This document shows positions 22,105 through 22,518 of a stretch of DNA of 23,837 nt, in pieces. Below the pieces are notes generated by a model that did no database searches, had not been told where the DNA came from, and worked only from the letters and a program-made list of their open reading frames with translations. The first letter of the stretch is position 1. The number at the start of each line of letters is the position of its first letter. Both the position numbers and the translations under genes were made by a program. The stretch is from IMG/VR virus record IMGVR_UViG_2534681835_000037, positions 1-23,837 of that record; one strand, given 5' to 3'. This stretch comes from a virus (taxonomy: Duplodnaviria > Heunggongvirae > Uroviricota > Caudoviricetes).

Positions 22105-22230
22105 ACCACACTAACGTGGGTGGACTGGTATAACAATCGACGATTGCTGGGAAGGCTGGGCCATACTCCTCCGGCAGAAGCAGAAAAAGCTTATTATGCT
22201 TCCATCGGAAACGATGATCTGGCAGCCTGA
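22105..22230 (+). mobile_element. 3' remnant of a DDE (rve-type) transposase gene, IS-element fragment
   Basis: Frame reads ...TLTWVDWYNNRRLLGRLGHTPPAEAEKAYYASIGNDDLAA*, matching the conserved C-terminal WYN-x-R-L-x-LG-x-P-x-E motif of rve-domain transposases; no upstream catalytic domain present. Confidence 0.45.
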
Positions 22231-22242
22231 GTTCACAGATAA

Positions 22243-22518
22243 AACACTCTCCAGGAAACCCGGGGCGGTTCAATCATCTATCAGATAACCCCCAGCAAAT
22301 GGTGTACGGAGAGAGTCCTCATTGCATCAACAGGGCTAAAGCCTGGCACCATTGAGCGGGCAAGAAGAAAGTCATGGCTGCAGGGAAAAGAATACCGCCA
22401 TTACGCTGTAGAAGGTGATCCGGGGCACTACAGTGAATGCCTGTACAACATCGAAGAAATTATGCGATGGATCGAAAACCAGAAACAACCAGGTGCCAAA
22501 AATGCAAGTTCCGGTTAA
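22243..22518 (+). pseudogene. Excisionase-like (Xis) ORF lacking an in-frame start codon
   Basis: Frame opening after the stop at 22240-22242 reads ...KWCTERVLIASTGLKPGTIERARRKSWLQGKEYRHYAVEGDP...; pattern resembles lambda Xis (QEW...SLETVRRWVRE...DGREYLFHESAVKV); ends 34 bp before int; no ATG/GTG/TTG in frame until near the 3' end. Confidence 0.35.

Follow-up and report, generated by a model that had tools for sequence, protein, structure and literature searches.

An internally deleted IS629 splits the excisionase gene of a lambdoid prophage at mlrA/yehV in Escherichia coli O111:H8

The insertion sequence IS629/IS1203 duplicates 3-4 bp of its target on insertion, and copies that are internally deleted or truncated are on record (PMC3271280). 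In E. coli O157 strain 9000 an IS629 lies in the excisionase gene of the Stx2c prophage, a condition described as "IS entrapment" of prophages (PMC5359411). Removal of the element is promoted by IEE, which drives transposase-dependent IS629 excision and carries out microhomology-mediated joining in vitro (PMC9943667); in vitro extension by IEE was seen with microhomologies of 4 and 6 nt, and none was detectable with 2 nt. IEE-promoted IS629 excision and the accompanying IS-adjacent deletions go back to Kusumoto et al. 2011, as that work is relayed in later papers (PMC9943667, PMC9397093, bioRxiv 10.1101/2023.06.07.543989), and the IEE products published in these sources are for the most part simple excisions or IS-adjacent deletions rather than internal ones. 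The iee gene is found on SpLE1-like elements of O111:H8 (PMC9397093). A review of IEE proposes that copy-out elements are lost by strand switching at microhomologies of 2-4 bp, that some of these breakpoints intrude into the IS, and that the IS tip is the point at which copy-out replication passes into the element from the cleaved flank (bioRxiv 10.1101/2023.06.07.543989). ISApl1 was lost from Tn6330 (mcr-1) via microhomologies of 2-4 bp as well (Snesrud et al. 2018, as summarized in bioRxiv 10.1101/2023.06.07.543989).

We define "the window" as the whole stretch of DNA analysed here, 23,837 nt in length. Over its entire extent it corresponds to the chromosome of E. coli O111:H8 strain 8E (NZ_CP077465.1, reverse strand) at 99.9% identity. 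It contains the lysis, replication, immunity and early-left regions of a lambdoid prophage and ends at the stop codon of the integrase gene, which adjoins mlrA/yehV. The gene order on the plus strand in the last 1.8 kb is DUF4222 gene, 44-aa ORF, xis, int. The features of this region are as follows.

22079 to 22083, plus strand: putative ribosome-binding site of xis (AGGAG, 6 nt before the ATG), identical in the IS-free strain 13E0780
22090 to 22101, plus strand: xis codons 1-4 (ATG CAG ACA ATC), placed by alignment with xisR of 13E0780, O55 RM12579 and O157 ECP19-598
22099 to 22101, no strand: left copy of the target duplication, ATC (relatives ACA ATC ATC TAT; window ACA ATC, 171 bp, ATC ATC TAT)
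22102 to 22107, plus strand: tip of the left inverted repeat of the IS, TGAACC, whose last two bases (CC) are the junction microhomology
22102 to 22272, plus strand: internally deleted IS629/IS1203, IS nt 1-6 fused to nt 1144-1310, from comparison with a full copy
22105 to 22230, plus strand: C-terminal 41 codons and stop of the IS629 OrfB transposase, a non-functional fragment assigned by translation match
22248 to 22272, minus strand: right inverted repeat of IS629, complete, 25 nt, imperfect, an exact match to TGAACCGCCCCGGGTTTCCTGGAGAG
22273 to 22275, no strand: right copy of the target duplication, ATC, which is also the duplicated xis codon 4
22273 to 22518, plus strand: xis codons 4-84 and stop, with the whole DUF1233 domain (Pfam PF06806) and without a canonical start
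22552 to 23837, plus strand: tyrosine integrase of the prophage, attachment site mlrA/yehV, present as ORFs 22552-22932 and 22965-23837

We conclude that a full-length IS629 very probably inserted into xis and afterwards lost its interior in place, leaving the flanking phage DNA intact and probably depriving the prophage of Xis.

The segment at 22102-22272 is a derivative of IS629/IS1203, of the IS3 group in the IS3 family, and measures 171 bp against 1310 bp for the full element. The reference used was the 1310-bp copy at L003:458-1767, which is itself bracketed by a 3-bp duplication, AAG. The stub and this copy share an identical prefix of 6 nt (TGAACC) and an identical suffix of 167 nt, the two overlapping by CC, and 1139 of the 1310 bp, or 87% of the element, are absent from the interior. 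The left end of the IS reads TGAACC/GCCCC, the internal site ...GAACTGG/CCACACTAACG, and the junction in the stub TGAACCACACTAACG. Gone with the interior are orfA, the frameshift site, the DDE core and the left inverted repeat beyond its first 6 nt. The identity of what remains is clear at the nucleotide level, as 22106-22272 is the same at 167 of 167 positions as IS1203/IS629 copies in more than 4000 genomes (megablast, E = 3e-81). The paired terminal repeats of the IS3 family are no longer a pair, the right one being complete and the left one cut to 6 nt; the termini nonetheless still read TG...CA, although the left repeat has been reduced to 6 nt of roughly 25. A reading of TGAACC as internal sequence of a variant IS was rejected, the near-full-length matches to the junction query on that account (H72-H95) being alignment noise: H72, a divergent and decayed relative of IS3, has GAAGCTGACCACACT, where IS629 proper reads GAACTGGCCACACT.

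Of the orfA-orfB arrangement with its programmed -1 frameshift and DDE (rve) core, the last 41 orfB codons alone remain. Positions 22105-22230 encode TTLTWVDWYNNRRLLGRLGHTPPAEAEKAYYASIGNDDLAA followed by a stop, identical to the C-terminus of IS629/IS1203 OrfB. The 41-aa tail by itself gave no match in Pfam, being too short to score, and its assignment therefore rests on the DNA identity; full OrfB matches rve at E = 9e-28, and the residues of the tail map into the rve_3/rve_2 region. An earlier note on this DNA, made from the letters alone, had recognized the tail of an rve-type transposase ending at 22230 and had remarked that no catalytic domain lies upstream. Both observations were sound: the tail translates as the OrfB C-terminus, and the genes that precede it encode a DUF4222 protein and the 44-aa ORF. 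Nucleotide search added the name of the element, IS629/IS1203, and the position of its right inverted repeat, 22248-22272.

The site of insertion can be read by comparison with prophages that lack the IS. The uninterrupted xisR reads AGGAGCTTGGC ATG CAG ACA ATC ATC TAT CAG..., and the window reads AGGAGCTTGGC ATG CAG ACA ATC [TGAACC...GGTTCA] ATC ATC TAT CAG.... Relatives that lack the insert, among them 13E0780, O55:H7 RM12579 and O157:H7 ECP19-598, cover 76% of the 701-bp query in two pieces and differ from the window here by exactly 174 bp. When the stub and one ATC are removed in silico, an 84-aa XisR is obtained as in these relatives. The target-site duplication is a perfect 3-bp ATC on both sides of the stub, which, judged against the empty site in the relatives, agrees with the 3-4 bp expected of IS629. 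A match of 4 nt to the IS tip beyond the overlap, together with a 3-nt duplication at the break point in xis, is far beyond chance. The earlier note suggested that the 5' end of xis had been deleted. It had passed over the xis start and codons 1-4 at 22090-22101 and the left tip of the IS, TGAACC, at the start of the remnant; the ribosome-binding site and codons 1-4 are in fact present at 22079-22101, and the ATC duplication stands on both sides. Alignment with intact prophages does show that xis is interrupted, but no phage DNA is missing, and the only change is the gain of the 171-bp unit and one ATC.

Directly after codon 4 the first bases of the IS supply an in-frame TGA (22102-22104), and the native product is MQTI*. 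The remainder of the gene carries the complete domain of the Rac-type excisionase XisR: 22273-22515 matches PF06806/DUF1233 over profile positions 1-70 of 70 at E = 5e-29, compared with E = 2e-29 for an intact relative. The gene as a whole is not intact, its ATG and ribosome-binding site lying 171 + 3 nt upstream with the in-frame TGA between. After the OrfB tail, stop codons at 22228-22230 (TGA) and 22240-22242 (TAA) are followed by a frame in the same phase that is open to 22518, in which no ATG, GTG or TTG occurs before 22462, the position of the first in-frame ATG. Within this frame 22243-22272 is the region of the right inverted repeat of the IS, and homology to xis starts at 22273. The Xis-like frame without a start that the earlier note described is thus real as an open frame reaching 22518, but is xis only from 22273 onward. 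In RefSeq (PGAP) the xis fragment is annotated as xisR, an 81-aa "excisionase family protein" with an ATC start (WP_078165992.1), and the 171-bp stub carries no annotated feature, with the result that the disruption by the IS is invisible in the annotation.

At window position 22378 an ATG has become CTG, a private substitution (Met39Leu in the numbering of the intact gene) that is absent from the four aligned relatives; it is compatible with drift after inactivation. A scan of 21900-22700 on both strands for the sigma-70 consensus revealed no outward promoter at the right end of the IS, a weak negative.

Both phage flanks of the stub are intact to the nucleotide, and the two upstream genes, DUF4222 and the 44-aa ORF, do not differ between prophages that have the IS and prophages that lack it. 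A prophage at the same mlrA site in O55:H7 RM12579 (87% coverage, 98.3% identity) has no IS and an intact xisR. It has the same early-left set, consisting of an XRE repressor, an HTH protein, three hypothetical genes, DUF4752, ead/Ea22-like genes and DUF4222, and neither exo/bet/gam nor an annotated N was found in the early-left region of this prophage or of the window. Since the IS-free RM12579 prophage has the same early-left set, the missing recombination genes are a trait of the phage lineage and not a scar of the IS. The earlier note was right that such genes are absent, but the absence, being common to RM12579, has nothing to do with the IS. By these alignments the site is an ordinary insertion scar at which no phage DNA was lost.

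Insertions of IS629 are found close by in related genomes. When the right junction was used as a query, one more genome came up, that of strain 8_140198 (NZ_AP026087.1), where a full-length IS1203 of the same orientation meets xis with its right end at the identical nucleotide. Left of that IS lie a truncated replication gene P and then ren, emrE and ybcK (L006 1290-3283); the adjoining triplet on the left is CAT, and the ATC duplication is absent. An IS-adjacent deletion took the early-left and immunity regions in 8_140198, so that the history put forward in the earlier note did take place in that strain and not in the window. The xis/int allele of 8_140198 is a different one: its xis departs from that of the window at 7 of 246 positions and agrees with the O157 allele, while the window matches the O55 allele; its xis fragment (L006:3038-3283) is likewise annotated in RefSeq as an intact 81-aa protein with an ATC start (WP_086173779.1). 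That 8_140198 has a full IS629 at this very nucleotide of xis demonstrates that full-length IS629 does land at this site. Either the same nucleotide of xis was hit twice, or one insertion was spread by recombination. In four O157:H7 genomes an IS629 lies within the DUF4222 gene of the mlrA prophage, about 330 bp upstream of xis; one of these is a full IS1203 in O157:H7 ECP19-598 (L007 1148-2703). Evidently IS629 has inserted repeatedly in this small xis/DUF4222 corner of mlrA-type prophages.

The proposed course of events is simple. A full IS629/IS1203, a copy-out-paste-in element, would have inserted between xis codons 4 and 5 and duplicated ATC. It would then have lost 1139 bp of its interior, keeping the first 4-6 nt and the last 165-167 nt, which were joined at CC. 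This would have left in place an immobile stub of 171 bp, with the phage DNA unharmed, that parts the ribosome-binding site and codons 1-4 of xis from the rest of the gene and places a TGA after codon 4. The earlier note proposed a history of the same class, insertion of an IS followed by deletion, and the remnant is indeed of the IS3 family; the deletion, however, is confined to the interior of the element. That insertion came before deletion is suggested by the arrangement as it stands, and a precursor, with the 5' end of xis joined to the full left repeat of IS629, did not turn up when complete E. coli genomes were searched with a built query. Against strain 8E this query, an xis flank joined to the whole left repeat, aligns at positions 1-59 and stops exactly 6 nt into the repeat. 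Of 5426 complete E. coli genomes, strain 8E alone has the deletion junction, and 185,579 GTDB species-representative genomes gave no exact match to it.

The history in the earlier note differs in its extent: a deletion beside the IS would have removed the 5' part of the element together with the 5' end of xis and the early-left genes for recombination and an N-like function. The lack of exo/bet/gam or N-like annotation in the early-left region of the window would fit this, and such an event has a precedent in 8_140198, where a full IS629 abuts the truncated P. Yet the ribosome-binding site and codons 1-4 of xis, identical to those of the relatives, sit directly to the left of the stub, ATC stands on both sides, the IS tip TGAACC forms the left end, and the upstream genes are collinear with those of IS-free relatives, including the O55:H7 prophage with its intact xis and the same early-left set. 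The intact ATC duplication and the rebuilt xis already refute a deletion into the flank, and we give it a negligible probability. An assembler might instead have collapsed a full IS629 in xis, and the 8 single-base indels relative to RefSeq do suggest an unpolished long-read assembly; but the stub is identical in the window and in RefSeq, and the collapse of a repeat is not expected to yield an exact tip, a duplication and a clean internal junction, so that an artefact is hardly to be credited. The 171-bp unit might also have moved into xis as such, a MITE-like derivative of IS629 mobilized in trans. The TG...CA termini, the clean 3-bp duplication and the supply of IS629 transposase by the genome would allow for it. 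Against this, only 6 nt of the roughly 25-nt left repeat remain, and the IS3-family transposase requires the inner part of the terminal repeat for binding; the junction, moreover, is confined to 1 of 5426 complete E. coli genomes and is missing from the species-representative set, and the stub has neither both terminal repeats nor multiple copies at different loci, as a MITE would. We consider transposition of the ready-made unit very unlikely.

The insertion of a full IS629 with later loss of its interior leaves the cause of the loss to be weighed. It may have been a failed or imprecise transposase-linked excision of the kind promoted by IEE, through a template switch or microhomology end-joining, rather than slippage. 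Strain 8E carries both components of such an event, an IEE identical to Sakai ECs_1305 at 786 of 786 amino acids (L011:19349-21709, next to the urease cluster) and, adjoining iee, an intact transposase of the cognate IS3-family element IS1203, with about 18 other IS629 right ends in the genome; the requirements for a transposition-linked event are therefore present. One breakpoint of the deletion lies 4-6 nt from the IS tip, whereas a breakpoint placed at random in 1310 bp would have a chance of about 1% of doing so. The competing account is that slippage or illegitimate recombination, independent of transposase, acted between two CC dinucleotides in the resident IS629. In its favor, the microhomology is just 2 nt, a length at which IEE showed no detectable extension in vitro, and internally deleted or truncated copies of IS629 are known from lineages with few copies of the element (PMC3271280). 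It leaves to coincidence a breakpoint no more than 6 nt from a tip, for which the random expectation is roughly 1% for either tip, as well as the agreement of this position with the entry point of copy-out replication under the strand-switch model, and it has to be set against the IEE and the active-looking IS629 copies that the matching genome has. We put slippage or illegitimate recombination below an even chance, but by no means far-fetched. The 2-nt microhomology at the junction is equally compatible with it and, because IEE gave no extension at 2 nt in vitro, offers weak support for IEE specifically. Between a transposition-linked origin at large and plain slippage or illegitimate recombination the chances are roughly even. 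The more specific proposal, that the stub is the natural footprint of an aborted excision of IS629 driven by IEE and transposase, is tentative and on balance unlikely: copy-out synthesis would have proceeded only 4-6 nt in from the left tip before moving to a new template position at CC 1.1 kb downstream.

Were that footprint proposal true, and were tip-proximal internal deletions to recur among the IS629 remnants of iee-positive E. coli, the strand-switch model would gain in vivo support; such recurrent deletions would favor it over the model in which IEE acts by end-joining of a double-strand break. Codon 4 of xis in mlrA-type prophages would then also be a repeated target of IS629, hit in two xis alleles. 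In strain 8E the iee gene is annotated as [quoted passage not shown] (L011 18039-21709), and a full IS1203 lies about 100 bp downstream of its stop codon. The gene is located within an SpLE1-like element whose own integrase is a frameshifted pseudogene.

The prophage shows other irregularities, some of which belong to the assembly. At 23837 nt the window falls 8 nt short of the corresponding RefSeq stretch (23845 nt), and the 8 single-base indels responsible were placed by comparing ORF coordinates. Seven of these single-base differences fall within window positions of about 1460-6127, where they disrupt the antirepressor gene (1819-2181 in the window, against an annotated gene of 570 nt) and chop the gene for a 648-aa DUF6645 protein into three or four ORFs (3882-5853). 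These differences suggest that the window derives from an unpolished long-read assembly, and frameshifts within it are therefore not to be taken as biology; the 171-bp IS remnant is identical in the window and the RefSeq record. The integrase gene of the window is broken into 22552-22932 and 22965-23837 by a run of seven A at 22910-22916. In the RefSeq record of strain 8E the run is of eight A and the integrase is an intact protein of 428 aa, identical to that of other strains. The split probably reflects a homopolymer error of the assembly from which the window was taken, though it could be a genuine second hit on the excision machinery.

Outside the window, the large terminase gene of the prophage in strain 8E is interrupted by an element of about 10 kb (NZ_CP077465.1 1841871-1854360, L004:24872-37361), which encodes an integrase of its own, a BRO-N protein, an Icd-like protein, a primase, SSB and a prohead protease/capsid fusion gene, and which looks like a satellite or P4-like element. 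The split terminase gene makes the prophage defective in packaging too. The interval between the Q antiterminator and the lysis genes (window 7344-10202) is the place where Stx phages carry stx. Here it holds genes for a DUF262 protein (7344-8501), a HEPN-like nuclease (8504-9193) and, convergent on the minus strand, a cytosine methyltransferase (9162-10202), which look like cargo of a defence type and are followed by iraM (6127-6453). No stx genes are annotated in the prophage.

The predicted consequence of the stub is the loss of Xis function. The 81 downstream codons include a complete DUF1233 domain, but they have neither a canonical start nor a good Shine-Dalgarno sequence. AUC supports initiation at a small fraction of the AUG level. 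Xis is therefore probably not made, or made at trace level from the ATC codon; if translation does initiate at that codon, as RefSeq annotates it, some Xis may be produced. Without a usable start for xis the prophage would be unable to excise efficiently and would be locked in the chromosome; judging from the gene structure, it is probably fixed there, with its excision impaired. The mlrA/yehV prophage of O111:H8 would in this respect be a further case of the IS "entrapment" known from O157 prophages (PMC5359411). For annotation, the value of the case is that the RefSeq call of an intact xisR masks a disrupted gene. With both tips, a duplication and a tip-proximal microhomology junction, the stub is also a tidy natural example for surveys of IEE-type IS removal. 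It is a known kind of event and involves no new element or mechanism.

In comparison with known systems, the stub resembles IS629/IS1203 itself in its last 167 nt (100% identical), the C-terminus of OrfB, the right repeat, the left tip, the 3-bp duplication and the TG...CA termini; it differs in being a dead remnant with 87% of the element missing, not an IS. The loss of ISApl1, as summarized from Snesrud et al., is similar in that a copy-out IS disappeared by way of very short microhomologies and some of the breakpoints fell slightly within its ends, but ISApl1 belongs to the IS30 family and nearly the whole IS (about 1070 bp) was removed, whereas the stub retains 171 bp. To the IEE products that later papers relate from Kusumoto et al., the likeness lies in the occurrence of IEE and IS629 transposase in strain 8E and in a junction with microhomology at the IS tip, of the kind expected from transposition-linked repair or a strand switch; IEE may have been involved in the origin of the stub. 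The products so reported are simple excisions or deletions directed outward, while the deletion in the stub is directed inward, and flanks and duplication are kept. Strain 8_140198 shares the orientation of the IS629 and the exact nucleotide of xis to which its right end is fused, and differs in its full-length IS, the truncated P at the left, the lack of an ATC duplication and the loss of the early-left and immunity genes. A parallel in expected effect is O157 strain 9000, in which the same IS lies in a prophage xis and excision should likewise be blocked; there the IS is full-length and the prophage a different one, whereas the IS in the window has been gutted and lies in a prophage at mlrA/yehV of an O111:H8 strain.
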